Shown here: positions 23,650 through 46,857 of the stretch, in pieces | Layout: each line of letters begins with the position of its first letter | Numbering within the stretch: position 1 is the stretch's first letter | Origin: Mytilus edulis | Taxonomy: Eukaryota | Assembly: GCF_963676685.1 (NCBI RefSeq) | Contig: NC_092353.1 | Span: forward strand, 20,371,307 to 20,435,306 | DNA length: 64,000 bases | Direction: 5' to 3' | Notes under the pieces: generated by a model | Seen by the model: the letters and a program-made list of their open reading frames with translations, nothing else | Database searches by the model: none | Told to the model about the DNA's origin: nothing | Translations under genes and position numbers: made by a program

Positions 23650-23874
23650 GGGAGTTTCTTCATCCTGATCCATGAGATAAGCTCCATGTCCTTCACTTAT
23701 TGCCTTCTTGTATTCCTTGTGAGCCGTCTCCTTCTCTTTTACTTCTCCCACGATATGTTTACCGTTGATAAAAGCTTCAAATCCACAAACAGCAGCCATA
23801 TCATCTAATGGAAACACATACTTAGCTTCTAGAGTAGAGGTACTAGTATTGTGGTACTCCTGTAAAACTACTAC
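23650..23874 (-). CDS. PARP4: PARP4-like gene, coding exon 14 of those seen: VIT domain, second part (VVVLQEYHNTSTSTLEAKYVFPLDDMAAVCGFEAFINGKHIVGEVKEKETAHKEYKKAISEGHGAYLMDQDEETP)
   Basis: Acceptor TTTCAG and donor GTAGGT, phase 0/0. The translation carries the hallmark VIT motif FPLDD-AAVCGFEAFINGK-IVGE-KEKE...GHGAYL shared by PARP4, VWA5A and ITIH proteins. Confidence 0.85.
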
Positions 23875-24484
23875 CTGAAATATAAAGTATTGTCGTAAAA
23901 AATGTAACAGGCTTCCAATACATAAATGGCTTTGAAAGTAGGATTACAGCAAAACAGGTCTAAACAGAACCCATCAAGCCTATTCAGCTTATGAAATTAC
24001 ATAGGTGCATGTTGGGAGTATGCCTTCATAAAACCCAACTATTCTTGAATATTTTCTGAAATACAAAAAAAAACAACATTGTTCAATTCAATTTCCTAAT
24101 TATAACCTGTTGCATAAATGTCTTTTTTTTTTTTACAATGGCATAAGTTTCCTTCTAACAGTTTTGCAAGGATTGAATAATAGAATGAAAAGTGATATCA
24201 TTCCTTTACATGTTTTGGTTACATTGAGATCAATTTCTACTGAAGTCCTGCCTATTTCAGAAAAAAAACTTTTATTCAGAACTTATTCAGATTTTACTAC
24301 AAATTATCAATTTTTGTATACTTGACTTTTGAGATGTCTGAAAATGTTTAAACAGTCATCAATCTGTGACAGTAAAATCATGAATTATGAATTTGAAAAG
24401 TAAAAGTTGGCATTGCAGCCAGTGTGAAAGAGAAACAACTCTTTTGTTTTTTCCATTTGAATGGTTTTATTCTAGTCATTTTTG

Positions 24485-24630
24485 GGGCCCTATATAGCTT
24501 GCTGTTTGGTGTGGGCCAATGCTTCATATTGAAGACCGTTATTTGTTACCAAATTGTGACTTGGATTTGAGAGTTGTCTCATTGGCACTCATATCACATC
24601 TTCTTATATCTACTCACAAACATTTGAAGC
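24485..24630 (-). mobile_element. Partial copy of the interspersed repeat family, inside the PARP4 intron
   Basis: Reverse complement reads GTGCCAATGAGACAACTCTCAAATCCAAGTCACAATTTGGTAACAAATAACGGTCTTCAATATGAAGCATTGGCCCACACC. Confidence 0.5.
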
Positions 24631-24740
24631 CACAATTAATGACATTCCTTAAAGAAAATTGCCAAACAGCATATTGTAGTTTAATTTGTCCAGCAATGTG
24701 AATAGTTTTAAAATATTTTTCTATGTTAGGTACTGATGGT

Positions 24741-24874
24741 ATAATCATACCTTTGAGGCCAAGTCCATAAGCTGAGCTCTGATATGGACTGATTTAAGAA
24801 CACATGATTCTCCTGAGGTAGATACCAATCCTGGCTCTACTTTGTCCATGGGATTCTTTATTCCAGAAACATCT
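24741..24874 (-). CDS. PARP4: PARP4-like exon 13: VIT domain start (IDLKDVSGIKNPMDKVEPGLVSTSGESCVLKSVHIRAQLMDLASK)
   Basis: Acceptor TTTCAG, donor GTATGA. Incoming phase 1 matches the end of exon 12. Continues in frame into exon 14 (…SVHIRAQLMDLASK|VVVLQEY…). Confidence 0.8.
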
Positions 24875-25363
24875 TTTAAATCAACTGAAATATAAAAGAA
24901 TATTTGGGACAGTTAATGCACACTGCACTAAAGAAACATACAATGAGGTTAAGACTTTACTAAATTATTTTGATTGATAATAAGTTGGTTGGTTAACGTC
25001 CATTGGCAAAACTATTTTGAGAGTTATTTAAGATAAGACAACAGTTAAGTTAAAATATTTCTGATATTTCATACTTAAGGATGAAATGATTTTAAGCAAA
25101 TAAATTATGTTGAATATTTAGTAAATTAATAAAAGTCACAATTGTCATAAGAGTCAGTAAGTATAATGGGACCAAAATGACTATAATGAGTACTGCCATC
25201 AGTTTTAGTCTATTCAGTGAATATGTTCCACAGTCATTTGTTTTTCAATAATATCAAAATTCATAGGTAAATTAAAATTTACTTATGAAATTCACACCGA
25301 TTGAACAGTTTGAATTTCCTTAAGGGTATTAACTGCAAAAGTGATATCAAATAATAATTTTAC

Positions 25364-25511
25364 TTTGCTGGTTAACATTATCATCCTGGTCTTCTTCCAT
25401 GGTGGACAGTGATTCTATGTTTAACGATTGTTTGATATCCCCTTCCACAGAAAACTCCACTAAGTACTCTACGATCTGCTGGTTTGTATTGTAAATTACA
25501 TATTCATCATC
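25364..25511 (-). CDS. PARP4: PARP4-like exon 12: C-terminal end of the PARP catalytic domain (DDEYVIYNTNQQIVEYLVEFSVEGDIKQSLNIESLSTMEEDQDDNVNQQ)
   Basis: Acceptor TTTATACAG, donor GTAAAA. Contains the conserved catalytic-Glu motif (D/N)EY(I/V)VY, comparable to PARP1 NEYIVYD. Confidence 0.85.
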
Positions 25512-25736
25512 CTGTATAAATTAAAATAAAAATTGTAACATATAATTAAATTGTACAATATACTGCGGTATGTACACAAAACTTTACTAGGACAAGTGCT
25601 GGTGGTTGTCTTGGAATTGCAGAAGGGTGGGAGTTTCTTTGCTCAGCGTTGTAGGCCTAACTGATACCCCTAGAAGAAGAACATCTATAAATGCACTGTT
25701 TGCTTCTTGTGCTTTTTTGGTGTGCACCTACTGATT

Positions 25737-28700
25737 TTGTGTCATGGATGGATATCCCATATCCTTTGTTTTGTCTATTAGGAATGTACTTGTGACATGG
25801 ATGGATAGACCATATCCTTTGTTTTGTCTATTAGGAATGTGTCATGGATGGATACCCCATATCCTTTGTATTGTCTATTAGGAATGTACTTGTGTCATGG
25901 ATGGATACCCCATATCCTTTGTTTTGTCTATTAGGAATGTGCTTGTGTCATGGATGGATACCCCATATCCTTTGTTTTGTCTATTAGGAATGTGCTTGTG
26001 TCATGGATGGATACCCCATATCCTTTGTTTTGTCTATTAGGAATGTACTTGTGACATGGATGGATACCCCATATCCTTTGTTTTGTCTATTAGGAATGTG
26101 CTTGTGTCATGGATAGATACCCCATATCCTTTGTTTTGTCTATTAGGAATGTACTTGTGTCATGGATGGATACCCCATATCCTTTGTTTTGTCTATTAGG
26201 AATGTGCTTGTGTCATGGATGGATACCCCATATCCTTTGTTTTGTCTATTAGGAATGTACTTGTGACATGGATGGATACCCCATATCCTTTGTATTGTCT
26301 ATTAGGAATGTACTTGTGTCATGTATGGATATCCCATATCCTTTGTATTGTCTATTAGGAATGTGCTTGTGTCATGTATGGATACCCCATATCCTTTGTT
26401 TTGTCTATTAGGAATGTACTTGTGTCATGGATGGATATCCCATATCCTTTGTATTGTCTATTAGGAATGTGCTTGTGTCATGGATGGATACCCCATATCC
26501 TTTTTTTGTCTATTAGGAATGTACTTGTGTCATGGATGGATATCCCATATCCTTTGTATTGTCTATTAGGAATGTGCTTGTGTCATGGATGGATACCCCA
26601 TATCCTTTGTTTTGTCTATTAGGAATGTACTTGTGTCATGGATGGATATCCCATATCCTTTGTATTGTCTATTAGGAATGTGCTTGTGTCATGGATGGAT
26701 ACCCCATATCCTTTGTTTTGTCTATTAGGAATGTGCTTGTGTCATGGATGGATAGCCCATATCCTTTGTATTGTCTATTAGGAATGTACTTGTGTCATGG
26801 ATGGATAGCCCATATCATTTGTTTTGTCTATTAGGAATGTACTTGTGACATGGATGGATAGACCATATCCTTTGTTTTGTCTATTAGGAATGTGTCATGG
26901 ATGGATACCCCATATCATTTGTATTGTCTATTAGGAATGTACTTGTGACATGGATGGATACCCCATATCATTTGTATTGTCTATTAGGAATGTACTTGTG
27001 TCATGGATGGATATCCCATATCATTTGTATTGTCTATTAGGAATGTACTTGTGACATGGATGGATAGACCATATCCTTTGTATTGTCTATTAGGAATGTA
27101 CTTGTGACATGGATGGATACCCCATATCATTTGTTTTGTCTATTAGGAATGTACTTGTGACATGGATGGATACCCCATATCATTTGTATTGTCTATTAGG
27201 AATGTACTTGTGACATGGATGGATAGACCATATCCTTTGTATTGTCTATTAGGAATGTACTTGTGTCATGGATGGATAGCCCATATCCTTTGTTTTGTCT
27301 ATTAGGAATGTACTTGTGACATGGATGGATACCCCATATCCTTTGTTTTGTCTATTAGGAATGTACTTGTGACATGGATGGATACCCCATATCATTTGTT
27401 TTGTCTATTAGAAATGTACTTGTGACATGGATGGATAGACCATATCCTTTGTTTTGTCTATTAGGAATGTGTCATGGATGGATACCCCATATCATTTGTA
27501 TTGTCTATTAGGAATGTACTTGTGACATGGATGGATACCCCATATCATTTGTATTGTCTATTAGGAATGTACTTGTGTCATGGATGGATACCCCATATCA
27601 TTTGTATTGTCTATTAGGAATGTACTTGTGACATGGATGGATACCCCATATCCTTTGTTTTGTCTATTAGGAATGTACTTGTGTCATGGATGGATACCCC
27701 ATATCATTTGTATTGTCTATTAGGAATGTACTTGTGACATGGATAGATACCCCATATCCTTTGTTTTGTCTATTAGGAATGTACTTGTGTCATGGATGGA
27801 TACCCCATATCATTTGTATTGTCTATTAGGAATGTACTTGTGTCATGGATGGATAGCCCATATCGTTTGTATTGTCTATTAGGAATGTACTTGTGTCATG
27901 TATGGATATCCCATATCCTTTGTATTGTCTATTAGGAATGTACTTGTGTCATGGATGGATATCCCATATCATTTGTATTGTCTATTAGGAATGTGCTTGT
28001 GACATGGATGGATACCCCATATCCTTTGTATTGTCTATTAGGAATGTGCTTGTGTCATGGATGGATTTCCATATCCTTTGTTTTGTCTATTAGGAATGTG
28101 CTTGTGACATGGATGGATATCCCATATCCTTTGTTTTGTCTATTAGGAATGTACTTGTGACATGGATGGATACCCCATATCATTCGTATTGTCTATTAGG
28201 AATGTACTTGTGACATGGATGGATACCCCATATCCTTTGTTTTGTCTATTAGGAATGTGTCATGGATGGATGTCCCATATCCTTTGTTTTGTCTATTAGG
28301 AATGTACTTGTGTCATGGATGGATACCCCATATCCTTTGTTTTGTCTATTAGGAATGTGTCATGGATGGATATCCCATATCCTTTGTTTTGTCTATTAGG
28401 AATGTGCTTGTGTCATGGATGGATACCCCATATCCTTTGTTTTGTCTATTAGGAATGTGCTTGTGACATGGATGGATACCCCATATCATTTGTTTTGTCT
28501 ATTAGGAATGTGCTTGTGACATGGATGGATACCCCATATCCTTTGTTTTGTCTATTAGGAATGTGCTTGTGACATGGATGGATACCCCATATCCTTTGTA
28601 TTGTCAATTAGGAATGTACTTGTGACATGGATGGATACCCCATATCCTTTGTTTTGTCTTTTAGGAATGTGCTTGTGTCATGGATGGATACCCCATATTA

Positions 28701-31073
28701 TTTGTTTTGTCTATTAGGAATGTACTTGTGACATGGATGGATACCCCATATCATTTGTTTTGTCTATTAGGAATGTGCTTGTGTCATGGATGGATAGCCC
28801 ATATCATTTGTTTTGTCTATTAGGAATGTACTTGTGACATGGATGGATACCCCATATCATTTGTATTGTCTATTAGGAATGTACTTGTGACATGGATGGA
28901 TACCCCATATCATTCGTATTGTCTATTAGGAATGTGCTTGTGTCATGGATGGATACCCCATATCCTTTGTATTGTCTATTAGGAATGTACTTGTGTCATG
29001 GATGGATAGCCCATATCATTTGTATTGTCTATTAGGAATGTACTTGTGACATGGATGGATATCCCATATCCTTTGTTTTGTCTATTAGGAATGTGCTTGT
29101 GACATGGATGGATACCCCATATCCTTTGTTTTGTCTATTAGGAATGTGTCATGGATGGATATCCCATATCCTTTGTTTTGTCTATTAGGAATGTACTTGT
29201 GTCATGGATGGATAGCCCATATCCTTTGTATTGTCTATTAGGAATGTACTTGTGTCATGGATGGATAGCCCATATCCTTTGTTTTGTCTATTAGGAATGT
29301 ACTTGTGACATGGATGGATACCCCATATCCTTTGTATTGTCTATTAGGAATGTACTTGTGTCATGGATGGATAGCCCATATCCTTTGTATTGTCTATTAG
29401 GAATGTACTTGTGACATGGATGGATACCCCATATCATTTGTATTGTCTATTAGGAATGTACTTGTGTCATGGATGGATAGCCCATATCATTTGTATTGTC
29501 TATTAGGAATGTACTTGTGACATGGATGGATAGCCCATATCATTTGTATTGTCTATTAGGAATGTACTTGTGTCATGGATAGATAGCCCATATCATTTGT
29601 ATTGTCTATTAGGAATGTACTTGTGACATGGATGGATACCCCATATCCTTTGTTTTGTCTATTAGGAATGTGCTTGTGACATGGATGGATACCCCATATC
29701 ATTTGTTTTGTCTATTAGGAATGTGCTTGTGACATGGATGGATAGCCCATATCATTTGTATTGTCTATTAGGAATGTACTTGTGTCATGGATAGATACCC
29801 CATATCCTTTGTTTTGTCTATTAGGAATGTACTTGTGTCATGGATGGATAGCCCATATCCTTTGTATTGTCTATTAGGAATGTACTTGTGACATGGATGG
29901 ATACCCCATATCATTTGTTTTGTCTATTAGGAATGTACTTGTGACATGGATGGATACCCCATATCCTTTGTTTTGTCTATTAGGAATGTACTTGTGACAT
30001 GGATGGATACCCCATATCCTTTGTTTTGTCTATTAGGAATGTACTTGTGTCATGGATGGATAGCCCATATCCTTTGTATTGTCTATTAGGAATGTACTTG
30101 TGTCATGGATGGATACCCCATATCCTTTGTTTTGTCTATTAGGAATGTGCTTGTGACATGGATGGATACCCCATATCCTTTGTATTGTCTATTAGGAATG
30201 TACTTGTGACATGGATGGATACCCCATATCCTTTGTTTTGTCTTTTAGGAATGTGCTTGTGTCATGGATGGATACCCCATATCATTTGTTTTGTCTATTA
30301 GGAATGTACTTGTGACATGGATGGATACCCCATATCATTTGTTTTGTCTATTAGGAATGTGCTTGTGTCATGGATGGATAGCCCATATCATTTGTTTTGT
30401 CTATTAGGAATGTACTTGTGACATGGATGGATAGACCATATCCTTTGTTTTGTCTATTAGGAATGTGTCATGGATGGATACCCCATATCATTTGTATTGT
30501 CTATTAGGAATGTACTAGTGACATGGATGGATATCCCATATCATTTGTATTGTCTATTAGGAATGTACTTGTGACATGGATGGATAGACCATATCCTTTG
30601 TATTGTCTATTAGGAATGTGCTTGTGTCATGGATGGATAGCCCATATCCTTTGTTTTGTCTATTAGGAATGTGCTTGTGTCATGGATGGATATCCCATAT
30701 CCTTTGTATTGTCTATTAGGAATGTACTTGTGACATGGATGGATACCCCATATCATTTGTATTGTCTATTAGGAATGTACTTGTGTCATGGATGGATAGC
30801 CCATATCATTTGTTTTGTCTATTAGGAATGTACTTGTGTCATGGATGGATAGCCCATATCCTTTGTATTGTCTATTAGGAATGTACTTGTGTCATGGATG
30901 GATACCCCATATCCTTTGTATTGTCTATTAGGAATGTACTTGTGTCATGGATGGATAGCCCATATCCTTTGTATTGTCTATTAGGAATGTACTTGTGTCA
31001 TGGATGGATACCCCATATCCTTTGTATTGTCTATTAGGAATGTACTTGTGACATGGATGGATACCCCATATTA
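25737..31073. repeat. Satellite array: about 100 tandem copies of a 53-bp unit (GGATGGATACCCCATATCCTTTGTTTTGTCTATTAGGAATGTACTTGTGTCAT), with 47-bp deletion variants
   Basis: Strict 53-bp periodicity over 5.3 kb. Variant positions recur (ACCCC/AGCCC/ATCCC/AGACC, TCCTTT/TCATTT, GTTTTG/GTATTG, TACTTGTGA/TGCTTGTGT). Lies wholly inside the intron between PARP4-like exons 11 and 12. Confidence 0.95.
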
Positions 31074-31299: not shown

Positions 31300-31483
31300 C
31301 TGAAATTCTGAAGATTGATCTTCTGACGAAGCTACACCATGACAGCTATCATACCCCTCTGGAGGCCCCTGTAGATCTTTGTGGTATTCTGTGAAATCTT
31401 TACAGTTGCCAAGGGCAACATTGCTGACTAGCATCATTCTGGTTCCCTTACATTTACTTTGGTCTGAGTATTGTATACTAGTA
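31300..31483 (-). CDS. PARP4: PARP4-like exon 11: PARP catalytic domain core (TSIQYSDQSKCKGTRMMLVSNVALGNCKDFTEYHKDLQGPPEGYDSCHGVASSEDQSSEFQ)
   Basis: Acceptor ATTACAG, donor GTACAC. Its phase joins exon 10 (…YFASSA-S-TSIQYS…). Conserved VALG and GYDS(V/C)HG motifs of the PARP acceptor site. Confidence 0.85.
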
Positions 31484-31831: not shown

Positions 31832-31930
31832 CTAGCAGAGCTGGCAAAGTAGACACCATTTCCAAGCATTCCTGCATCTGTTCTGGTTCCACCAAAATCA
31901 TCAACAATTATTTTAGGCAAAAGTAAACCC
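31832..31930 (-). CDS. PARP4: PARP4-like exon 10: PARP catalytic domain (GLLLPKIIVDDFGGTRTDAGMLGNGVYFASSA)
   Basis: Acceptor TTTTAG, donor GTATGT. Contains the catalytic Tyr motif G-x-G-(I/V)-YFA, comparable to PARP1 GKGIYFAD. Confidence 0.85.
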
Positions 31931-32518: not shown

Positions 32519-32659
32519 CTAGATAATATTCCAACAAAGTTCTGAACTTTTGATGCATGAAACAACAACTTCTGAGGTCTCAAATTTTTTCTAAAATTGT
32601 CTTCTTCTACTTGTCGATGAACACAGAAAACATTACTAATGCTGATCTCAGGACTTCCT
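32519..32659 (-). CDS. PARP4: PARP4-like exon 9: PARP catalytic domain start (GSPEISISNVFCVHRQVEEDNFRKNLRPQKLLFHASKVQNFVGILSR)
   Basis: Acceptor TTTCAG, donor GTAAAA. Contains LLFHAS (the H-G-S NAD-binding motif, here H-A-S) followed by N-x-x-GIL, comparable to PARP1 [23 protein letters not shown]. Confidence 0.85.
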
Positions 32660-33572: not shown

Positions 33573-33733
33573 TGTTTGAGAGACTGTATAATGTGTTCCT
33601 TGATCAGTTTATATTCTGTATCTGTAATCTGTAAACCATCAAGTCTACATCGTAATGCTTTATACTTGGCCTCGGTACTACTTCTGGTCGACCAGTTTGT
33701 AGACTCACTCACAGCTACCATATCTTTAATCAT
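33573..33733 (-). CDS. PARP4: PARP4-like exon 8: end of the PARP regulatory (helical) domain (MIKDMVAVSESTNWSTRSSTEAKYKALRCRLDGLQITDTEYKLIKEHIIQSLKQ)
   Basis: Acceptor ATTTCAG at 33734-33739. The donor was placed at a weak GTTTGT site to keep phase with exon 9, so the 3' boundary is uncertain by a few nt. AKYKALRC motif as in the vertebrate PARP4 regulatory domain. Confidence 0.65.
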
Positions 33734-34052
33734 CTGAAATACATAATCTTAAAATACATACATCATGTCAAAAACATACACTAAAAATTTAAAGTCAGGA
33801 AACTAGTGATTTACCTCCTTTTGTAATAGGGAAATGATAAAAAGAAACATCTAATTTTGTAATAGAGCATTTCTTTACTCAGACTTACAAAATCTTCCTT
33901 CAAAATGTGTTTTTATTTTGTCCTGACATTTCTATATACAAGAACAATAAAGGTCACTAATTGTAATGGAAAATGAGTGAAGAAAGTTTTTCTGTATGAA
34001 TATTAACTAACATGACTCTTTTCTGTGGAAGTGTTTGGTTTTATGTGACATA

Positions 34053-34218
34053 ATTTTATATCATATATATTTTTACTTACCAGTCAAGGAATATACATAA
34101 GGATTATCTCCCTTACAACGTTCTCATAACTCGCAACACCTGGATGATTTCAAACATCTATCTAACATTGATCATCCGGGTGAATGCCTCCTCAGTTTAT
34201 CTTTCGGCGGCAACAAAA
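34053..34218 (+). repeat. DIRS-like element, left ITR (inner about 150 bp identical to the right ITR in inverse orientation; outer about 15 bp unique)
   Basis: TTTTTACTTACCAGTCAAGGAATATACATAAGGATTATCTCCC...CCTCAGTTTATC is the reverse complement of 39296-39447. Confidence 0.85.
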
Positions 34219-34312
34219 TAAGACGTTCTCACTTTGAGACTTTCTATTATAGTCTCGTCGTTGCAATTTTTATTTATGTACGTTTAATATTATCGTCCGC
34301 TCATATTGGACG

Positions 34313-35974
34313 ATGGCTGAAGAATATAGACACTCACTGACTGACGCAAATGCTGATTCAGATAGTGCAGGTGAAACGCCAACGGGTGATTTTCTCGTGA
34401 AAAAGATGGCGAGGACAACAAAAGACGCTTCTTCAAAGAAAAAGAAACGTGTGTCAAAGACGGCTGAACTTGAGAATAAGTTAAACAGTATGGAAGACAG
34501 GTTTGATAAGAAAATGGATATGTTATTTGCTGTTATGAACAAGTCATGTGCTACTATAGGTAGTTCGACTGTTGCACAGGTTTCTCAATCTGGTGGTTTA
34601 GCCACGCAGAGAGAACAAAGTTCGGATAACGTCCCAAGTACAGGGGAGCGTAGACCGGTAATTTCTTTGAATGCAAATCTTGATGAGGACTTGGGAAGTC
34701 CTAGAATCATCAGAAATATTGATTTTGACAATAGGTCAGAAATTTCTCTTCATATAGACAGTCGTGAAAAGGCTGATTTACTTGGTTTATGTTCATCAGA
34801 GGATGAATATTCTCGTGGCCTCAGTAGTCCTGTTTATTCTCAGGCTGGCAATAAATCTAGAAATGTTGAAAGATTTAGTCAATATCTACAAACTCAACCT
34901 ACTATTAGTAACAATGTTGAAAGTCAGTCAAATCAGAGACTAACAAGTAACATTGATAATAATAACAATAAAACTGTAGACAAGCAGTCAGATAATTTAA
35001 ATTTATTGTCTAAACTTTTCAAGGAAGATATTCCTTCAGAATCTTCTGATAATTCTGGTGGCTTGATCATTGATGAGGCACAGGTTAGAATTCTAGAACG
35101 TTCCTGGAGAACAAAAAATCCAGAGAAACTTACAGCTTATAAAGATGAATACCGTAGTTGTTTTCCGGTTAATGATAAATCTAAAAGCTTTTTGCAAGTA
35201 CCCAGTTTGGATGATTTATTAGAACCAATGATAAGAACTGTTCATGGTACAAATAGTGTTAAGTCATGGGACAAACATAAGCAGTTGGTTACTCAACCTT
35301 TAAAACAGATAGAGAATCTAGCCTATCAAGGGCAGGTGGCTTCACGTATGGGTATTATATCAGTGTTGTATATGCAACAAACATTAGGAACCTTATTAGA
35401 GAGGGTTGAAAATGAAAATGTTAGTGATGAAACTTGTCAAATGGTGAAGGACTTGTTTGCAATTTCGACAAAGTCTCTTGATCAGGTAGGACGCACAGGT
35501 GCGTTTAACCATATGATACGCAGGAAGGCTGCAGCTACTGAGTCTGGTTTAAATAACTTGAAAGATATACAGGCTAAAGTTTTGTATTTACCTCTTTCGA
35601 ATGAAGGTGTATTTGGTAAAGGTTTGGAAGACAAACTTGAGAAACGTAAAGAACAACGTGAGCAACTAGACGATCTGTTACCAGAGTATAAAAACAATAA
35701 TAAGAGAAAGTTTGAATCTACTCAGGTGCGTCAAGATTGGCAAAATAAAGCTCCTAGATATAGTTCTAACAATAGTTCTACTCATGTTAATTATAACAAT
35801 GCTAATTCAGCTGATAAACGTTCAGGTTTTAGTTATAATAAATCTTCTGTGAGATCTGCTCCTAGGAAGTTCCAGAAAGACAATAAAGCTGATGACTTTG
35901 GGAAAAAAGATAAAGAAAAGAAAGCAGGTGGCAACTGGAATTCTTTTCGGATCCCAAAGAAAAACAGTAGCTGA
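34313..35974 (+). CDS. DIRS-like ORF1 (gag-like, 553 aa; acidic N-terminus, basic, Ser/Asn-rich C-terminus)
   Basis: Long intact ORF immediately after the left ITR. Low-complexity, charged composition typical of DIRS gag-like ORF1. Overlaps ORF2 by about 80 nt in a different frame. Confidence 0.6.
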   Translation: MAEEYRHSLTDANADSDSAGETPTGDFLVKKMARTTKDASSKKKKRVSKTAELENKLNSMEDRFDKKMDMLFAVMNKSCATIGSSTVAQVSQSGGLATQREQSSDNVPSTGERRPVISLNANLDEDLGSPRIIRNIDFDNRSEISLHIDSREKADLLGLCSSEDEYSRGLSSPVYSQAGNKSRNVERFSQYLQTQPTISNNVESQSNQRLTSNIDNNNNKTVDKQSDNLNLLSKLFKEDIPSESSDNSGGLIIDEAQVRILERSWRTKNPEKLTAYKDEYRSCFPVNDKSKSFLQVPSLDDLLEPMIRTVHGTNSVKSWDKHKQLVTQPLKQIENLAYQGQVASRMGIISVLYMQQTLGTLLERVENENVSDETCQMVKDLFAISTKSLDQVGRTGAFNHMIRRKAAATESGLNNLKDIQAKVLYLPLSNEGVFGKGLEDKLEKRKEQREQLDDLLPEYKNNNKRKFESTQVRQDWQNKAPRYSSNNSSTHVNYNNANSADKRSGFSYNKSSVRSAPRKFQKDNKADDFGKKDKEKKAGGNWNSFRIPKKNSS

Positions 35975-38042
35975 CTCAGAGTTAAAGGTAATAATTTATC
36001 AGAATCAGGCCGAGATACCAGTTGGGGGTCGTCTAAGATTTTTTCGAGACAATTGGGAAAAAATAACAGACGATCAATGGGTCTTGTCAGTAATAGCAGA
36101 GGGTTACAAACTAGAGTTTCTAGAAATGCCATTTGGGACAGGCATACGGAAAACCTCTGTGTCTTTAAAAGACTCGGATATTTTAATCCAAGAAATAAAT
36201 ACTCTTATAGAAAAAGATGCTATAGAACCTGTTCGCCAGCAAGATGCAGCAACAGGTTTCTACAGTACGTTTTTTCTAGTCCCCAAAAAGAACGGGACAA
36301 TGAGACCAGTAATAAATCTCAGACCCCTCAACAGGTATCTCAAGAAAATACATTTCAAAATGGACACTCTCACAAAAGTATTAAACTTAGTAAAAATAGG
36401 AGACTGGGCCATTTCTCTGGATCTAAGCGATGCTTATTTACACATCCCAATTTTTCAGAAGCATCCCAAGTTTCTCAGATTTTCGGTTCAGAACCGGTGT
36501 TATCAGTGGAAAGTTCTTTGTTTCGGACCAACTTCGGCTCCGAGAGTCTTTACAAAAATGGTTTCCGTAGTAGCGGCTTTTTTGAGAACTCAAAATGTAA
36601 GACTAGTAGTATATCTAGACGATTGGCTAGTAGTCAATCAAAGCAAGAATCAATTATATCAAGATCGAAAGAAATGTCTCGATCTCCTAAATTCACTAGG
36701 TTTTCTCATCAACAGAGAAAAATCAAGTCTAGTGCCAACTCAAAACTTGATATACTTAGGGGGGCAGTTTCATTTGGACAAGGGACTTGTTTGCCCAACT
36801 CAGGAAAGAATAGACAAATTGAATATGGCAATACTAATTCTTTCATCAGGGAATGCAGTGTCAGCATTTCACTTCCTACAATTACTAGGCATAATGGCAT
36901 CTTGCATAGAGTTAATTCCGAATGCACGCTTGTTCATGAGACCGGTTCAACTACATCTCCTCTCATTTTGGAGACCAAGTTGTCAGGATCTTTCCATAAA
37001 GATCCCAGTTACACCACATCTGAAATCACATCTCAGTTGGTGGAAAGATTCAGCAAACACGCTGAGAGGCCAATATTTTCAACTGGCTCAAACCTCTGTA
37101 ACCATAACGACAGATGCTTCGAAAACCGGGTATGGGGGTTTTATGAACAATCAAATTTTTCAAGGGGAATGGTCAGAAATGCAGAGCAAGAAACATATAA
37201 ATTCCCTAGAATTGGAAGCAGTGTTTTTAACGCTGAAACACTTCCTAAATCAGTTGAAAGGTCAATATGTTCTGATAAGATCGGACAATACCACAGTGGT
37301 CCAATATATAAACAAACAAGGGGGGACGAAATCGCCCACTCTTTGCTACCAAACATGGGATTTATGGAATCTTGCAATTCAAAACAATATTCGAATGAAG
37401 GCTGCTCATATAACAGGAAAATTGAACATTTTAGCAGACCAACTCAGTCGAACCAAAATTCAACATACAGAATGGTCTCTGAACAAACTTGTGGTTCAGA
37501 ATCTATTTCAAATTTGGGGAACTCCTCTCATAGATTTATTTGCCTCAATAGACAATCGTCAGACAGAAATTTTTTGTTCATGGATCCCACATCAGAAAGC
37601 CTTAGCTCTGGATGCTTTGACAATTTCATGGGAGAGAATGTACGCCTATGCTTATCCCCCAATTTGTCTGATCCCAAAAGTCTTGCAATATATGAGGCAG
37701 TACCAGTGTCAGATTTTGTTGATAGCTCCCCAATGGCCACGGAGACATTGGTACCCAGAGCTGCTACAATTATTGATAGCAGTCCCCATCAGGATACCAG
37801 TAATTCCGGAATTGTTATGTCAACCGAAAACTCGGATTTATCATCCCAATCCACAAGTTTTCAAGCTGACTGCATGGCTTCTATCAACGAACGGTTTACA
37901 ACAGAAGGCTTTTCTAAAGGGGTTAGAGAGTTACTCTCCGCCTCATGGCGAAAAGGTACTCAAAAAGATTACTGCTCAAAATTCAGAAGGTTCAATAGCT
38001 GGTGTAGTACAAGGAAAATTGATCCCTATAAAATATCTTTAA
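35892..38042 (+). CDS. DIRS-like ORF2: reverse transcriptase, RNase H and a C-terminal DIRS-type domain (716 aa)
   Basis: RT motifs PVINLRPLN, LDLSDAYLHIP and VVYLDDWLV (YxDD box). RNase H motif ITTDASKTGYGG...HINSLELEAV. C-terminal conserved block LIDLFAS...AYAYPP...LLIAPQWP characteristic of DIRS elements. Confidence 0.85.
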   Translation: MTLGKKIKKRKQVATGILFGSQRKTVADSELKVIIYQNQAEIPVGGRLRFFRDNWEKITDDQWVLSVIAEGYKLEFLEMPFGTGIRKTSVSLKDSDILIQEINTLIEKDAIEPVRQQDAATGFYSTFFLVPKKNGTMRPVINLRPLNRYLKKIHFKMDTLTKVLNLVKIGDWAISLDLSDAYLHIPIFQKHPKFLRFSVQNRCYQWKVLCFGPTSAPRVFTKMVSVVAAFLRTQNVRLVVYLDDWLVVNQSKNQLYQDRKKCLDLLNSLGFLINREKSSLVPTQNLIYLGGQFHLDKGLVCPTQERIDKLNMAILILSSGNAVSAFHFLQLLGIMASCIELIPNARLFMRPVQLHLLSFWRPSCQDLSIKIPVTPHLKSHLSWWKDSANTLRGQYFQLAQTSVTITTDASKTGYGGFMNNQIFQGEWSEMQSKKHINSLELEAVFLTLKHFLNQLKGQYVLIRSDNTTVVQYINKQGGTKSPTLCYQTWDLWNLAIQNNIRMKAAHITGKLNILADQLSRTKIQHTEWSLNKLVVQNLFQIWGTPLIDLFASIDNRQTEIFCSWIPHQKALALDALTISWERMYAYAYPPICLIPKVLQYMRQYQCQILLIAPQWPRRHWYPELLQLLIAVPIRIPVIPELLCQPKTRIYHPNPQVFKLTAWLLSTNGLQQKAFLKGLESYSPPHGEKVLKKITAQNSEGSIAGVVQGKLIPIKYL

Positions 38043-38875
38043 GTCAGATAGCTGATTTTTTATCATATTTATTTGATAGTGGTTTGCAATACAGAACAAT
38101 TGCAGGGTATCGCTCAATGTTGTCCACGGTATTACCTCCAATAGATAATTTCCAAATTGGACAACATCCTAAAATAATTCGATTGATTAAAGGTGTTTTC
38201 AATACAAGACCTCCAGTTGCAAAACTATTACCTGAATGGGATTTGCACGTAGTATTAAGAATGTTAGAAAATAGTCCTTTTGACAATGTTGAACAAATGA
38301 CTTTAAAAGATTTGACTTTAAAAACTGTATTCTTAACTGCCATTACTACTTTCAGGAGATGTAGCGATCTGCAGGCACTAAGAACGGATGAAGGCTCCAT
38401 GAGAATACAGACTAAAGGAATTACGTTTATAAGACATGGCCTAGCCAAACAGGATAGGGAGAAACATTTTGGAGCAAAAATTTTCGTACCTACATACACT
38501 GAGAATACCTCTTTAGATCCACGGAAAAGTCTGTTACAATATTTAGATAAAACAAAACCGTTGCGTAAAAAATTACAACAGGACCAAAGAGGAAAATTAT
38601 TTTTAGCTTTATGTGAACCTCACAAACCAGTTACCTCTCAGACAATTTCACATTGGATTGTTCAAATTATTAAACAGGCTTATTCTGATTTTGAATATCC
38701 AGGGAAAGGGAAAATACATGCGCATTCTACAAGAGCTATTGGCCCAACTTGGGCATTCTTTAAAGGAGCATCTATCAATTCGATCTTAGAATCTGCAGAT
38801 TGGAGTTCAGAATCTACCTTTAGTAGATTTTATTTGCGTGAATTAGATGTAAATGTGTTACAGAAAATAGACTAA
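37733..38875 (+). CDS. DIRS-like ORF3: tyrosine recombinase (C-terminal about 380 aa of the 940-aa open frame 36053-38875, which overlaps ORF2 in another frame)
   Basis: N-terminal core-binding-like region (LLSASWRKGTQKDYCSKFRRFNSWC). Catalytic-domain motifs: R in TTFRRCSDLQAL, HAHSTRA (H-x-x-R) and the terminal SESTFSRFYLRE (catalytic Tyr). Confidence 0.75.
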   Translation: MATETLVPRAATIIDSSPHQDTSNSGIVMSTENSDLSSQSTSFQADCMASINERFTTEGFSKGVRELLSASWRKGTQKDYCSKFRRFNSWCSTRKIDPYKISLSQIADFLSYLFDSGLQYRTIAGYRSMLSTVLPPIDNFQIGQHPKIIRLIKGVFNTRPPVAKLLPEWDLHVVLRMLENSPFDNVEQMTLKDLTLKTVFLTAITTFRRCSDLQALRTDEGSMRIQTKGITFIRHGLAKQDREKHFGAKIFVPTYTENTSLDPRKSLLQYLDKTKPLRKKLQQDQRGKLFLALCEPHKPVTSQTISHWIVQIIKQAYSDFEYPGKGKIHAHSTRAIGPTWAFFKGASINSILESADWSSESTFSRFYLRELDVNVLQKID

Positions 38876-39146
38876 GTTGATATTTTCGGCGAGTTGCACA
38901 GTATGTTTTTGTTATTCATTAAAATGTTAGTGGTGGAAGCATTTTAAATGGTGGAAGTATTTTATATGTTTTTAAATATGAACATGAACTACATTTCAAC
39001 TTATGATGAAGTTTGAAATGACAAAGAATCACAGAGAAGTTTTGCTGTTATTAGATGTGTACATGTGTTGTAGAAAGTCTCTTCAGGTGAGATAATTTAT
39101 TTATAACACTCCTCCTAAGGTTCAGACTGCTTTGAAATCAGTAGTA

Positions 39147-39254
39147 ATCCTTATGTATATTCCTTGACTGGTAAGTAAAAATATATATGATATAAAATTG
39201 AGAATTTGTTATCAAGTTCTAATTTTATGAATTATTTTTACTTACCAGTCAAGG
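39147..39254 (+). repeat. DIRS-like internal complementary region (ICR)
   Basis: ATCCTTATGTATATTCCTTGACTGGTAAGTAAAAATATATATGATATAAAAT is the reverse complement of the left terminus 34053-34105. TGAGAATTTGTTATCAAGTTCTAATTTTATGAATTATTTTTACTTACCAGTCAAGG is the reverse complement of the right terminus 39428-39483. The two halves abut with AAATT microhomology. Confidence 0.85.
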
Positions 39255-39291
39255 CTCCCACCACCTCCCCAGTTATAAATAATTTTCGGTA

Positions 39292-39485
39292 AAAGGGAAT
39301 ATTTTGTTCCCGCCGATAAACTGAGGAGGCATTCACCCGGATGATCAATGTTAGATAGATGTTTGAAATCATCCAGGTGTTGCGAGTTATGAGAACGTTG
39401 TAAGGGAGATAATCCTTATGTATATTCCTTGACTGGTAAGTAAAAATAATTCATAAAATTAGAACTTGATAACAAATTCTCAATT
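39292..39485 (-). repeat. DIRS-like element, right ITR (inner about 150 bp identical to the left ITR, plus an about 38-bp unique outer extension)
   Basis: See the left ITR. One 4-bp indel relative to the left copy (TTTCGGCGGCAAC vs CGGCGGGAAC). Confidence 0.85.
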
Positions 39486-39742
39486 TGGAGTCAATAATGG
39501 GTTTGCTAGGCATATAGTTTATGTCAGTGCGTTCAGCCAAAGGATGAATATTCTAATGGTGATAAATTCTATGTGACTGCTTTGTAAGTGTTTTTAAAGG
39601 ATAAAATTTAATATATTTCTATAGGCAGGTTTTGATTATGTTCAAAGATTCAAGGATCCACTTAACCCATTAAAAGTTGCATGAGAAGTCAGAAAAGAGT
39701 TAAATAGTATTTCTGGTAATTGAAATGGATCAAACATATTAC

Positions 39743-39910
39743 CTGACATATATCTTGTTTCTTTGATAGCCATGCTCTCCTTTGTGATTTGACTGGTTGA
39801 GTTTTGTTTTTGTGTGGTAATGTTTCATTGAATTCTTTAAACAACTGTTCTACTTTTAAGTCATCCTTGCAATCCTTTATCTTCAACAGAATAGCTTCTG
39901 CTTTCTCTAT
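39743..39910 (-). CDS. PARP4: PARP4-like exon 7: PARP regulatory helical domain (IEKAEAILLKIKDCKDDLKVEQLFKEFNETLPHKNKTQPVKSQRRAWLSKKQDICQ)
   Basis: Acceptor TATTATAG, donor GTAATA, phase 0/0. F-x-x-LPH motif of the PARP regulatory domain (PARP1 FYTLIPHDFG). Joins exon 8 to give …KQDICQ|MIKDMVAV…, comparable to PARP1 …SVQAKVEMLDNLLDIEVA…. Confidence 0.7.
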
Positions 39911-40355: not shown

Positions 40356-40493
40356 CTGTTCTAACTTGATGCTCTGTAAAGGTACGCTTATCACCTGCTC
40401 TATTTCACCTGTAGCCTCTTTCCAAATATGTTCAATCAACTCTTCGGTTGATGGTGACAAGGGACGACTGTCCATTCCATATATGTCTACCAT
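40356..40493 (-). CDS. PARP4: PARP4-like exon 6: start of the regulatory domain (MVDIYGMDSRPLSPSTEELIEHIWKEATGEIEQVISVPLQSIKLEQ)
   Basis: Acceptor TTTTTCAG, donor GTATGC, phase 0/0. Comparable to PARP1 …IDYGQD…PVQDLIKMIFDVESMKKA…LGKLSKRQI. Confidence 0.7.
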
Positions 40494-41274: not shown

Positions 41275-41480
41275 AAACTATAGCTTGACCCCATCACATT
41301 CTGTAAGTGCTTGTCCCAAGTCAGGAGTATTTCATTCAGTGGTGGTTGTTTGTTGCTGTCATTTCAAGGACTCATATGGCTGACTTTGTGATATGGGTCA
41401 TTTGCTCATTCAAGAAGGTTGTACAGTGACTTATAGTTCTATGTCATTTTCTCTCATTAGCAATCATACCAAATCTTCAA
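41275..41480 (-). mobile_element. Copy of the interspersed repeat family inside a PARP4 intron
   Basis: GTCCCAAGTCAGGAGTATTTCATTCAGTGGTGGTTGTTTGTTG is the reverse complement of the family tail. Head TCTCATTAGCAATCATACC. Confidence 0.55.
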
Positions 41481-41514
41481 TTTTTATATTTTATCAACTT
41501 TTTATACAACCTAC

Positions 41515-41667
41515 CTTTTGAAAGTTTGTAGAACCAATTTTTCTTGACAAGGGTTGGTATATAACATCCATGTTGTATGGAGGTCGAGTTTGTTCAGTAT
41601 GTAAATAGGTATACACATGTAGGGCATCATCTGATGTGGCAACATACCGACATTCTGTAACACCTCT
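41515..41667 (-). CDS. PARP4: PARP4-like exon 5 (RGVTECRYVATSDDALHVYTYLHTEQTRPPYNMDVIYQPLSRKIGSTNFQK); C-terminal part of a WGR-like region
   Basis: Acceptor TTTTTCAG, donor GTAGGT, phase 0/0. The …STNFQK end is comparable to PARP1 …WHSKNFTK just before the regulatory domain. Confidence 0.6.
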
Positions 41668-42201: not shown

Positions 42202-42336
42202 CTCAATATCAGTCAGTGAACCAAAATGTGAATAGACCCTGAATCTATAACAGTCTGATCTGTTCAAATCCACCGGCTCAGCTACATGTATCTCCAAATT
42301 ATAAAACAGCGTGGTCTCTTTTAACTTGTCATATTT
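42202..42336 (-). CDS. PARP4: PARP4-like exon 4: WGR-like segment (KYDKLKETTLFYNLEIHVAEPVDLNRSDCYRFRVYSHFGSLTDIE)
   Basis: Acceptor ATTTCAG, donor GTAGAT, phase 0/0. Comparable to PARP1 [26 protein letters not shown], with the WGR triplet replaced by HFG. Confidence 0.6.
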
Positions 42337-43173
42337 CTGAAATATATATAACTACAATAACAGTAACATGTTAGCTATCATTTAAAAAAGTTTTACTGAT
42401 AAGAAATACTGTAAACCAACTTATTTTTGAGAGCGATTTATTTTTGCGCTTTCACAAATAAAAAATAACGCTGATATAAATAGTGGTAAATATGTAAAAC
42501 TTTTATCTCTCCTTATTTAAATACGTAAATCAAATTTGAAATCGTGAAACTAAATCACCATGAAAAGGGCTAGTAAGGGCTAAAACACAAAATAAAGTAT
42601 CTGCGAAAATAAGTTGGTTTACATTATTGTATGTTTAGTAACAAACTTACACAGTGCATGTATAGCAGCATGAATAACTGGTATTTTTAAATAAAATAGA
42701 CTTCTCTAAAAATTGGTTCGGTGCAAAATCTTTTGAAACAGACACAAATGAACAATTAAAAAAATTTAAAATGTATTAACCAAAAAAAAATGATATATAG
42801 TTTATAATAATTGGTTTTTAACTATTTATTTTCCTCACTACAAGGGTATATATATACTTTTTATTTGTGCATGATGTCACATTTTCCTTAAGTATTTCAT
42901 ATAGATGGGAATCAATTTTTTAACACACTCAATGTGAAATTAACTTCAGGTAATCACTAATAAATGTAGACAACAGAAAACACATTTTTTTCCACTGCAA
43001 ATTACTAACTTAAGAACTCTGTAATTAAAATACTATCTGACTGCAGGCTCAGCACAGACAAAGAGATAAGAACCAAATTATCATTTAAAATCGCTTTCAT
43101 CTAAAAAAAAAAAAAATCTAATACAAAATTGTTAATTTCTATAATTCTAAAAAATAAGAGCATTATTCCTTAC

Positions 43174-43316
43174 CTGAAATATGGCATACTTAGCCACCTC
43201 ATAGTCTTTTTCATTGTACTCTGGGGCATTTTTATCTTCTATCTTCCAAACTTTAACATTTTTAGGGTCAATTTTAAATTTCTTCTTCTTGGGTTCTTTG
43301 CTCTGATATTTTGAGG
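43174..43316 (-). CDS. PARP4: PARP4-like exon 3: basic linker with an NLS-like stretch (SKYQSKEPKKKKFKIDPKNVKVWKIEDKNAPEYNEKDYEVAKYAIFQ)
   Basis: Acceptor TTGCAG, donor GTAAGG. Its phase joins exon 2 (phase 1) and exon 4 (phase 0). Confidence 0.6.
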
Positions 43317-43820
43317 CTGCAAATCAAAACAAATCATTCCTCTTTTATATATTCATCATGTCTAAATATTTTAATATTTAACAATTCATTACATTTCTGC
43401 TAATTTTTACCTCATCTGTAAGCCAGGTAAATGTTGTGTTGTAAAGACAAATACATATTGATATAAATGGAGAATGTGTCCATTATGAGGACCCAGATAA
43501 TGCCCTTGCTTGTGTAACAATACACTTACGCTTCTACAATAAATGGACATAACATAATTTTAAAAGCGTAATGTAAAATATTTTTCACTAAAGTACGTTC
43601 AGACCTACTGAACAATTTTTGAAGTCTGAAAAAACTAATGTCATACATATTGTATTCAGAGATTTGTACTTTGGAAATCTTTAGAATATTGAAAAATTAT
43701 TTCTAATTTTGATTTCAAGTTTTAAAACTTCAATCAAACAGTAGGCCAAACATGAGATATTGGTAGATACCCCTTTTCCATTTATGAAATAAGTTTGTTT
43801 ATTTTTCCTTTTCCTTTTAC

Positions 43821-44019
43821 CTGTTATCTTTCCTGAGCTGAATTCTTGTGACTTTGTTTTTCCTACAAGGATGTAATTATCTGTATTGAGTAGTCTCCCC
43901 TGGTCTACACAGTCATGGATATAATCAAGTGACACTACTGGTAATCCATACTTTGAGGCCATCTTACATTTGTAACTGATATCTGCCTTTTCTGGGTCAT
44001 TACATACAACATGTGTACT
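43821..44019 (-). CDS. PARP4: PARP4-like exon 2: BRCT domain, C-terminal half (STHVVCNDPEKADISYKCKMASKYGLPVVSLDYIHDCVDQGRLLNTDNYILVGKTKSQEFSSGKIT)
   Basis: Acceptor TTTACAG, donor GTAAAA. BRCT signature THVV...A...G.PVVS..(W/Y)I..C...G.LL....Y. Confidence 0.8.
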
Positions 44020-44544
44020 CTGTAAATAAACCAGAAACATATAATAAACAAGACAACAAATATGATAATGATCGATCTTTAGGGAAGACATGTAGACATT
44101 AGGGAGGTTTTGAAATTTGTGTCAAATGTTAATAGCTCATAAAAAGGTCATTACATACAACATGTGTACTCTGTAAATATATTCGTTAATAGTCAAGTGA
44201 AATTATTAGTTAAATTTGGGGATACATATAGATACATGATATATATAGTCCTGTATACAGTGAATTCAAAAATTCTTGTGAGGTTCACATTCATCTGAAT
44301 AATGTGACTGGGAGTGGGTTTGTATCACATTAATTGAAACTTTCATTCTGATATCAAGTTAACAACTCTGTATGAATATTTTCCTGGAATCACAATAATT
44401 AAACTTGCCTTTAAGTCCATTCTTAACCAGATGCTCTGCAGGGTGCAGCTTTATACGGCCGCAGAGTTCGAACCCTGAACAGTTGACACAGAATAAATGT
44501 GGTCTAAGAACTTAAACTTAAAAACTTATAAATTTTTTAAATTG

Positions 44545-45200
44545 GACATTTACCTATTATGGTCCAATATCCAAAATCTAAATACATGGTTAGATTCAGC
44601 ATATCAAAGAACCCCAAGAATTCAATTTTTGATGAAATCAAATATAGTTCAATTTTGGACCCTTTAGACCTCAATGTGGACCAATTTGATAACCGGGCCC
44701 AAATATCATAATTCTAAATGCATGGTTAGATTCAGCATATATCAAAGAACCCCATATATTCAATTTTTGTTGAAATCAAACAAAGTTTAATTTTGGACCC
44801 CGATTTGAACCAACTTGAAAACTGGGCCTATAATCAAAAATCTAAATACATGTTTAGATTCAGCATATCAAAGAACCCCAAAGTTTCAATTTTTGTTGAT
44901 ATCAAACAAAGTTTAATTTTGGGACCACGATTTGGACCAACTTGAAAACTGGGCCCATAATCAAAAATCTAAGTACATGTTTAAATTCAGCATATCAAAG
45001 AACCCCAAGAATTCAATTTTTGTTAAAATCAAACTAAGTTTAATTTTGGACCCTTGGACCTTATTGTAGACCAATTTGAAAACGGGACCAAAAATTAAGA
45101 ATCTACATACACAGTTAGATTCGGCATATCAAAGAACCCCAATTATTCAATTTTTGATGAAATCAAACTAAGTTTAATTTTGGACCCTTTGGGCCCCTAA
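44545..45200. repeat. Tandem repeat family 1: 5 copies, period about 117-138 bp (unit contains TTAGATTCAGCATATCAAAGAACCCCAAGAATTCAATTTTTGATGAAATCAAA...TTTTGGACCC)
   Basis: The TTAGATTCAGCATATCAAAG motif recurs at 44590, 44726, 44864, 44981 and 45113. Confidence 0.85.
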
Positions 45201-45660
45201 TTTTTAAACTGTGGGGACTAAAACTCCCAAAATCAATCTCAACCTTCCTTTTATGGTGTTTAAATTTCATAGATTTCTATTTACTCATACTAAAGTTATG
45301 GTGCCAAAACCAAGAAAAATGCTTATTTGGGCCCCTTTTTGGCCCCTAATTCCTAAACTGTTGAGACCAAAACTCCCAAATCAATTCCAACCTTCCTTTT
45401 GTGTTCATAAACCTTGTGTTTAAATTTCATAGATTTCTATTTACTTTTACTAAAGTTATTGTGCGAAAACCAAGAAAAATGCTTATTTGGGCCCTTTTTT
45501 GGCCCCTAATTCCTAAACTGTTGGGACCAAAACACCCAAAATCAATCCCAACCTTCCTTTAGTGGTCACAAACCTTGCGTTTAATTTTCATAGATTACTA
45601 TTTACAAAAACTAAAGTTATAGTGCGAAAACCAATGTGCCAACGTCATACCAATATACGA
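45191..45660. repeat. Tandem repeat family 2: 3 copies, period about 150-160 bp (GGCCCCTAATTCCTAAACTGTTGGGACCAAAACTCCCAAAATCAATCCCAACCTTCCTTT...CATAGATTTCTATTTAC...CCAAGAAAAATGCTTATTTGGGCCC)
   Basis: GGCCCCTAAT recurs at 45191, 45341 and 45501. Confidence 0.85.
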
Positions 45661-45793
45661 CCGCAAACATTTTTTGCGGTCGTATAAAAAGTCACAATAA
45701 TAATATAAATGCACACAATAATTTCTTAATTCACAGTTTTAAATCCAAGAAATGAAATTTGGGCAACTAATAAAAATGCTCTTTGAACAGTAG

Positions 45794-45817
45794 GTATATA
45801 TATATATATATATATAG
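45794..45817. repeat. (TA)n microsatellite, about 12 units
   Basis: Direct reading. Confidence 0.9.
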
Positions 45818-46728
45818 TGTCTGGCAAAGATCGTGTTCTTTTCAAGTGAATTCGTCCACTTTTTTTCGGATGCAGATCTTGTGGGGTTTTTTTTTCGTGA
45901 TAAAACAAGTGCTATTTCCTAATTATAACAGTCTTATTTGTGACTGTCCATCTTATTTTGAATACTATACATGTTTAGAGCAAAAAAGTCACAAAATATT
46001 ATTGTACAGTGAAACCTGTTTTTAGAGACCAGTAAAGTTAAGGGAGAACAAAAAAGTGGTCTCTCATGAAGACATGTAGTCTTTTATTACAGGTTCAAAC
46101 TATATGAAATGTACTACAGCTAGAGGGATCTAAATTTATGGTCGTATGATACAGGGTTTTGCTTAATACAGATGGTCTCTTAAGCAGGTTTGACTGTATT
46201 TAACTTAAAATTTTGTGATTTGCATTGTCCATGTTTTTTCGAGAGCAACATTTAAACATCCAGGTTTTGTAACAAATGGTCTGAGTTTGAAACAACATAT
46301 CTGAATTTGAAAAATTATGTCAAAGCGTTGCATGTTAATGAATGGACATTGTTTGGCAGCCTACTCACCGCCATATATCACCAAATCAATAACTGACTTT
46401 TTTTCCTTAAAAAATCTAGTTTAAAATCAACCACCTTCAAAATGATGACTAAGGGAAATAACTCCAGCTCAGTTTATGCCATTTATTGAAACCCTAATAT
46501 CTATATGGTTTCTCATACTTCAATTTTTTTTTTTTTATTTCTTGATAACATTTAAATTCAACTGTCCAGATGAATGAAAACTAATAAAAAAAAGGTAAAA
46601 TTGTTGTTATATTGGTCATTTGAATTCTGTTGGATTATAGTTTTCGCATTGTAATCATACCCCACATCTTCTTAGTATAAAATTCTAAAATCTGGAAATT
46701 GGTAAATGGCGAGTTCTATGATGTTTAC

Positions 46729-46857
46729 CTTTTTAGTGACAATATATGATATAACTCCTCCATTATTAGTTATCTTTTTCCTGATTTCTGTCTTTTTCTT
46801 AAAGTTGACACTGGTTGTCAAATCAAGGACAATTTGACAATCACTAAATATCGACAT
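46729..46857 (-). CDS. PARP4: PARP4-like exon 1 (coding): initiator Met and BRCT domain, N-terminal half (MSIFSDCQIVLDLTTSVNFKKKTEIRKKITNNGGVISYIVTKK)
   Basis: ATG at 46855-46857 (minus strand), donor GTAAAC. Comparable to the human PARP4 N-terminus …GIFANCIF…KKKLQTDIKENGGKFSFSLNPQCTHII. Confidence 0.75.

Follow-up and report, generated by a model that had tools for sequence, protein, structure and literature searches.

Human PARP4 (PARP clade 5A; PDB 11jf, 9bw6, 9bw7, 8sx1 and 8swy) is an ADP-ribosylating enzyme of vault particles. It contains a BRCT domain, a WGR domain without the W-G-R residues, an N-terminal helix and helical domain (HD), an ADP-ribosyltransferase (ART) domain with an H-Y-E triad, a linker and a VIT domain; it also has a vWA domain and a major vault protein (MVP) interaction domain (MVP-ID). 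The stretch BRCT-WGR-HD-ART was described as a 'PARP1-homology region' whose WGR reads F-L-L, and BRCT and WGR were found to act jointly in reducing catalytic-domain activity (Frigon et al., 2023, PMC10711553). According to the literature, autoinhibition of the catalytic domain by the HD is incomplete, and vault association depends on the C-terminal MVP-ID. The enzyme (vPARP) is known from vault-bearing animals (PMC2964712), and MVP is abundant in the gill of Mytilus edulis (PMC5302490). A 64-kb stretch of mussel DNA (64,000 nucleotides, NC_092353.1, positions 20,371,307 to 20,435,306; the whole stretch is called the window below) was analysed here. Judged from its sequence, the region from 46857 to 23650 on the minus strand holds 14 exons (719 codons) and represents the 5' part of a mytilid mussel PARP4, or vault-PARP, orthologue. 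Its product has the layout BRCT, WGR-like, HD, ART and VIT, with the N-terminal helix, linker and H-Y-E triad of human PARP4, an architecture that is already published.

Exon borders were set by hand from the sequence and then verified by joining the exons. The joined coding sequence was 2157 nt (719 codons) and stop-free. All introns were of the GT...AG type with a pyrimidine-rich acceptor, and 26 of 26 splice-site dinucleotides were intact. The start phases of exons 1-14 were 0, 0, 1, 0, 0, 0, 0, 0, 2, 2, 2, 0, 1 and 0. Two codons before the ATG at 46857 stands an in-frame stop, with a single codon in between, and the ATG was aligned with the initiator Met in the homologues from Pomacea and Solemya. 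Exon 14 terminates in a phase-0 donor (CCC/GTAGGT). The window is clearly eukaryotic and AT-rich (G+C 29-42% per 2-kb block) and contains zero N. The exons were as follows.

Exon 1, 46729..46857, minus strand: aa 1-43; start codon at 46857; first half of BRCT.
Exon 2, 43821..44019, minus strand: aa 44-109; second half of BRCT.
Exon 3, 43174..43316, minus strand: aa 110-157; Lys-rich linker and start of the WGR-like domain.
Exon 4, 42202..42336, minus strand: aa 158-202; core of the WGR-like domain, with 'RVYSHFGSL' placing F-G-S at the W-G-R positions.
Exon 5, 41515..41667, minus strand: aa 203-253; end of the WGR-like domain.
Exon 6, 40356..40493, minus strand: aa 254-299; N-terminal helix and start of the HD.
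Exon 7, 39743..39910, minus strand: aa 300-355; HD with the LPH motif.
Exon 8, 33573..33733, minus strand: aa 356-408; end of the HD and start of ART.
Exon 9, 32519..32659, minus strand: aa 409-455; ART, with the catalytic His443 (H-A-S).
Exon 10, 31832..31930, minus strand: aa 456-488; ART, with Tyr483 and with Met477 at the position of PARP1 M890.
Exon 11, 31300..31483, minus strand: aa 489-550; ART, with Thr490 at the position of PARP1 K903 and human PARP4 T484.
Exon 12, 25364..25511, minus strand: aa 551-599; catalytic Glu553 (DDEYVIY), end of ART and acidic linker.
Exon 13, 24751..24884, minus strand: aa 600-644; linker and start of VIT.
Exon 14, 23650..23874, minus strand: aa 645-719; VIT up to profile position 88 of 111, ending in the phase-0 donor.

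An earlier sequence-only reading of this DNA had placed 14 phase-consistent exons between 23650 and 46857. Coordinates, exon number and phases were exact, as tested by GT-AG borders and the stop-free 719-codon join. The motifs that it quoted were all found: LLFHASK (H443), GVYFASS (Y483), DDEYVIY (E553), ETLPHKN (helical domain) and FPLDDMAAVCGFEAFINGK (VIT). Two minor features were seen near the 5' end of the gene. The ATG is preceded by an AG at a distance of 7 nt, and a 5' untranslated exon may therefore exist. The exon-2 acceptor junction (TATTTACAG/AGTACACATGTTGTATGTAATGACC) recurs as a 34-nt duplicate at 44145-44178 (minus strand), 151 nt upstream of the real acceptor; its decoy acceptor at 44170, if spliced, would lead to a stop after 13 codons.

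The 719-aa product was compared with all PDB sequences. Residues 1-716 were matched to residues 3-710 of human PARP4 in a single collinear alignment (E 4e-118). The other PARPs followed with E-values of 2e-22 (PARP2), 3e-15 (PARP3) and 3e-13 (PARP1), about 100 orders of magnitude below PARP4, and identity as one of PARP1-3 was ruled out by these values. A single BRCT was found by Pfam at the extreme N-terminus (PF00533, aa 2-81, E 2e-11; PF16589, E 1e-10), followed by the PARP catalytic domain (PF00644, aa 394-571, E 3e-31) and VIT (PF08487, aa 629-716, E 1e-27, profile positions 1-88 of 111). PARP_reg was matched at aa 288-373 with an E-value of 1e-3 and 19.7 bits, under the 26.8-bit threshold. 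The helical domain was instead secured by the crystal sequence of human PARP4 HD and ART (8sx1), which matched aa 259-575 (E 9e-71).

A collection of 5.8 billion proteins was searched with a 688-residue first-draft join of the exons. The top relatives were annotated PARP4-like proteins of Pomacea (49% identity, 100% coverage), Candidula, stony corals and Solemya, then vertebrate PARP4, and the 43 best matches had PARP4-type annotation or architecture. Over the draft query, the proteins of Pomacea canaliculata (P0001), Candidula (P0002), Oculina (P0003) and Solemya (P0005) were 46-49% identical to the mussel product, with which they share the start, the exon-encoded blocks and the motifs. The Pomacea and Candidula proteins extend into vWA and beyond, the Oculina model ends in vWA and the Solemya model stops in the HD. 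An N-terminal profile hidden Markov model (HMM) built from homologues only, without the window sequence, recovered 12 of the 14 exons, in order, from the six-frame translation of the window. These matches lie well outside what chance would give.

PARP1, PARP2 and PARP3 share the WGR-HD-ART core and the H-Y-E triad with the mussel product, and PARP1 also has a BRCT. Unlike these three, the mussel product has no zinc fingers, a WGR without Trp and Arg, and a VIT after the ART. The sequence-only reading had called PARP4 from a BRCT start and a catalytic domain followed by VIT. In BLASTP/HMMER-type checks the closest relatives were PARP4 and not PARP1-3, by database search and by PDB E-values, and both domain placements were borne out by Pfam and the human PARP4 alignment. 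What was found over 14 exons is an ordinary, apparently intact orthologue of a well-described family, and the layout BRCT, degenerate WGR, HD, ART and VIT is conserved from mollusc to human.

No match to the Pfam WGR model was obtained in the mussel product, nor in snail or fish PARP4. Residues 105-260 were aligned with the same region of 12 homologues, and the resulting profile was compared with an alignment of WGR-HD-ART proteins using hhalign (probability 97.5%, E 6.5e-12, 107 columns). 'RVYSHFGSL' was set on 'RIYTHYGRT', so that the W-G-R positions are occupied by F-G-S. The sole match of the profile in the PDB was human PARP4 (residues 139-253). For the Solemya segment, which is 41% identical, an AF2 model with a mean pLDDT of 82 showed a four-strand sheet and a helix. 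Its best Foldseek matches were the WGR domains of PARP1 (2cr9) and PARP2 (6f1k, 6f5b), with a probability of 0.96-1.0, an E-value of only about 1e-2 and a TM of about 0.5. The mussel segment keeps the Gly (F-G-S), whereas human PARP4 has F-L-L. The WGR-like segment is real, yet it characterises the whole family and is no peculiarity of the mussel gene; nor is it a novelty, because the human PARP4 WGR without W-G-R is already published. An atypical WGR between BRCT and the regulatory domain, as read earlier, therefore stands, and only the proposed replacement 'HFG' had to be corrected to F-G-S, the H preceding the triplet positions.

H443, Y483 and E553 were aligned with H438, Y477 and E547 of human PARP4, and the H-Y-E triad that had been read from the letters was thus intact. 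By this alignment, NAD+ would be bound in the ART fold through His443 and Tyr483, and ADP-ribose would be transferred with Glu553. The BRCT may serve as a nucleic-acid or vault-RNA binding module, as it does in human PARP4 (literature). A damping role may be proposed for the BRCT and the degenerate WGR by analogy with the human protein, where BRCT and WGR jointly damp, and do not activate, the catalytic domain (literature). No vault RNA was found in the window, where Rfam and tRNA scans were empty.

Mono-ADP-ribosylation by human PARP4 has been ascribed to a disabled acceptor site, with T484 for PARP1 K903, E544/D545, N471 for M890, and K516 (Frigon et al., 2023, PMC10711553). The K903 position of PARP1 is a switch between poly- and mono-ADP-ribosylation. 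The corresponding residues were as follows.

Human PARP4 T484; PARP1 K903; mussel T490 (same as human).
Human PARP4 E544/D545; PARP1 L985/Y986; mussel Q550/D551.
Human PARP4 N471; PARP1 M890; mussel M477 (PARP1/2 state).
Human PARP4 K516; Ala in PARP1/2 (residue number absent from the paper); mussel Y522.

The mussel product is like human PARP4 in having Thr at the K903 position and Asp at the D545 position, and unlike it in having Met477 for N471, Tyr522 for K516 and Gln550 for E544. Because Thr490 and Asp551 are the same as in human PARP4, the mussel enzyme is predicted from these two conserved positions to carry out NAD+-dependent mono- rather than poly-ADP-ribosylation. At the K903 equivalent (model residue 490, exon 11, around 31480), Thr was found in the mussel, one coral and human, and Lys (ASKS) in the two snail PARP4s. 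The M890 position was occupied by Met in all invertebrate PARP4s examined and by Asn in human PARP4. The acceptor-site comparison adds a small comparative point on why PARP4 mono-ADP-ribosylates.

The only Mytilus relative returned by the protein searches was P0032, named 'PARP2_3_4', at M. edulis CAJPWZ010001022.1:3459991-3501072 (L001). Over exons 8-14, L001 was 89-97% identical to the window in nucleotide sequence, with the same borders. The introns were unalignable at standard sensitivity and reached 62-68% at best with a permissive scheme, so that synteny across intron 14 could not be judged. L001 is compact, with exons 8'-14' in 3.9 kb (10 kb in the window), exon 15' about 430 bp after exon 14' and the remaining exons within 9 kb. 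It is also decayed: small indels or frameshifts and stops were found in exons 9', 11', 13', 14', 15' and several later exons. No exons 1-7 were found in the 10 kb upstream. The M. edulis assembly appeared base-accurate, a 553-residue retroelement open reading frame (ORF) being identical in that assembly and in the window, and the L001 indels are therefore probably real. The window and L001 differ by 7.8% at first, 3.4% at second and 15.5% at third codon positions, a pattern indicative of prolonged purifying selection, with the decay of L001 setting in only recently.

L001 was considered as the orthologous continuation of the window gene and was rejected, since no long match links the 10 kb upstream of it to window positions 1-23650 and since its exons are decayed. 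Copies of the DIRS-like retroelement found in intron 7 of the window are 99.8-99.9% identical in M. edulis and GCA_965363235.1, so that the window probably stems from a genome like those of the Mytilus edulis complex. For this reason L001 is probably a diverged paralogue or remnant and not the same locus. The decayed PARP4 copy occupies positions 9993-22600 of L001 (exon 8' to the end) and is annotated as the chimera 'PARP2_3_4', fused to EF-hand exons; the gene model next to P0032 fuses Snf7, HSP70 and the PARP4 MVP-ID. The value for annotation is a 14-exon model for the N-terminal 719 residues of mussel PARP4, the sole Mytilus relative from the protein searches being a frameshifted partial model.

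The 3' part of the gene was not found in the window. The exon-14 border falls midway through the VIT fold and is common to the window and L001, where exon 15' comes next, and the ORF is intact in the window copy, in contrast to the decayed M. edulis copy. The most likely reason for the missing part, with a probability of roughly 0.65, is that the gene continues beyond the window after an intron 14 of more than 23.6 kb in a repeat-rich locus. An intron of this length is plausible because two introns are already inflated by about 5 kb each, one by a retroelement and one by a satellite. The continuing exons would be on the minus strand, in phase 0, beginning 'DVFTVSVGNLPPG...', and would encode the rest of VIT, the vWA domain and an MVP-interaction domain tethering the enzyme inside the vault.

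Several results weigh against a continuation of this kind. Neither the rest of VIT nor counterparts of the human vWA domain and MVP-ID (PF26156) were found on either strand of the whole window, and exon 15 or later exons were not found in the 23.6 kb downstream of exon 14 or elsewhere in the window. Searching the window by tblastn with four homologues (snail, coral and M. edulis proteins) returned exons 1-14 only. A six-frame search for motifs of the C-terminal exons (GNLPP, LIGLAE, HVPRMW and others) returned none. A C-terminal profile HMM (911 alignment columns, 34 homologues) gave a best E-value of 0.59 in six frames, with the N-terminal HMM that finds 12 of the 14 exons as control. The caveat of the sequence-only reading, that the VWA and MVP-binding part was not seen below 23650, thus applies to the entire window. 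The other introns measure 0.35-6 kb, and exons 14' and 15' of L001 are about 430 bp apart. The protein collection contained no Mytilus model with exons 1-7 or with an intact C-terminal half; in a search for an intact Mytilus C-terminal PARP4 protein the best match was Lingula (58%), and no Mytilus protein was returned.

These absences would also fit a partial, 3'-truncated PARP4 copy with exons 1-14 only, derived from a segmental duplication or rearrangement. Such a copy, which is unlikely but carries appreciable weight, would be either a young pseudogene or the source of an expressed, vault-independent protein with BRCT, WGR, HD, ART and half a VIT. It would account for the lack of exons 15 and later in the 23.6 kb downstream and for the lack of a Mytilus model covering the exon 1-14 region in the protein collection. 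Read-through past the exon-14 donor meets a stop after two codons. L001 is a complementary partial copy, running from exon 8' onwards with none of exons 1-7 in the 10 kb before it. It shows that pieces of PARP4 have undergone duplication or rearrangement in the lineage, and it keeps a truncated copy under consideration. However, the 2157-nt frame is open with all 26 splice dinucleotides intact, and the concentration of differences from L001 at third codon positions indicates long purifying selection. A protein that stopped at position 88 of the 111 in the VIT profile would also be left with an incomplete fold. The downstream 23.6 kb consist of repeat-rich DNA (a 21-bp minisatellite, an ORF resembling the tail of a long interspersed nuclear element (LINE) and at least eight copies of a short dispersed repeat) with no convincing gene, as expected in a long intron.

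A naturally truncated PARP4 (BRCT, WGR, HD and ART) that ends at exon 14, has neither vWA nor MVP-binding parts, is for that reason uncoupled from the vault and arose by fission or partial duplication in Mytilus, with the decayed M. edulis locus as the other remnant, is doubtful. Real truncation would make the gene a modest case of fission, in a genome whose structural variation is well known. Slightly more doubtful still is an assembly mis-join or a haplotype-specific structural variant downstream of exon 14. The expected neighbouring exon does vanish abruptly, and mussel genomes have high heterozygosity and much structural variation; but the window has no Ns and no recognisable breakpoint signature, and since its introns are unalignable to L001 generally, non-alignment past exon 14 is uninformative. 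A pair of genes, with BRCT-to-ART exons of PARP1/2/3 type and VIT exons from an ITIH-like gene, can be dismissed as highly improbable: inter-alpha-trypsin inhibitor heavy chains (ITIH) also have VIT and ITIH1 was a weak match (E 5e-4), but the human PARP4 alignment is unbroken across ART, linker and VIT, exons 12, 13 and 14 are linked by phase-1 and phase-0 GT-AG junctions, the exon 12-13 junction (phase 1) recreates the linker 'QIDLKDV' (compare 'EIDLHDV' in snail PARP4), neither a start codon nor a signal peptide context for ITIH was present, and PARP1-3 scored some 100 orders of magnitude worse than PARP4, so that the VIT exons belong to the same gene, as first read.

The two inflated introns of the PARP4 gene contained the following elements.

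DIRS-like retroelement, 34050-39487, plus strand: in intron 7, antisense to PARP4; 5.4 kb of the 6.0-kb intron; outside the product.
53-bp satellite, 25737-31071, strand not applicable: 101.5 copies with 93% matches; 5.3 of the 5.8 kb of intron 11; outside the product.

The DIRS-like element is full-length, with 153-bp inverted terminal repeats (34068-34220 and 39300-39448, 96.7% identical). A gag-like ORF of 553 aa is intact, and the element further carries a 716-aa reverse-transcriptase ORF (RVT_1, 9e-22) and a C-terminal tyrosine-recombinase region (Phage_integrase, 1e-4). Because of the near-identity of its copies, the family is young and probably active. In public assemblies the gag ORF was present at four other places, and the window's own locus was found neither through this ORF nor through the mucin-like ORF described below. 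Spurious ORFs of 45-48 aa, dozens of them on the two strands, arise from the satellite of intron 11, which also causes a strong GC/AT skew at 26-30 kb. Tandem repeats were also found in PARP4 intron 1 (44569-45634; 127-bp and 160-bp units), and these recur at several places in L001. The minisatellite downstream of exon 14 lies at 1498-2314 and has 38 copies of 21 bp.

The dispersed repeat (190-300 bp) was located at 6816-7059, 7417-7714, 11656-11840, 12110-12294, 15848-16114, 18628-18818, 20686-20930 and 24444-24612. Its copies are 68-85% identical and lie in both orientations, and several are also present in L001. It is probably a short interspersed element (SINE) or a miniature inverted-repeat transposable element (MITE). 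Thr/Ser-rich ORFs of 1428, 600 and 146 aa were found at 55208-62124 (minus strand), built of 369-bp (123-aa) tandem units with about 90% identity. They matched no Pfam domain, and the 600-aa ORF was absent from the assembly collection; they resemble a mucin-like gene, situated upstream of PARP4 and in the same orientation. Remnants of non-LTR retrotransposons were found at 52126-54066 and 10008-10502 (both minus strand), comprising an RVT_1 fragment (3e-8) and two ORFs resembling the C-terminal tail of LINE ORF2.

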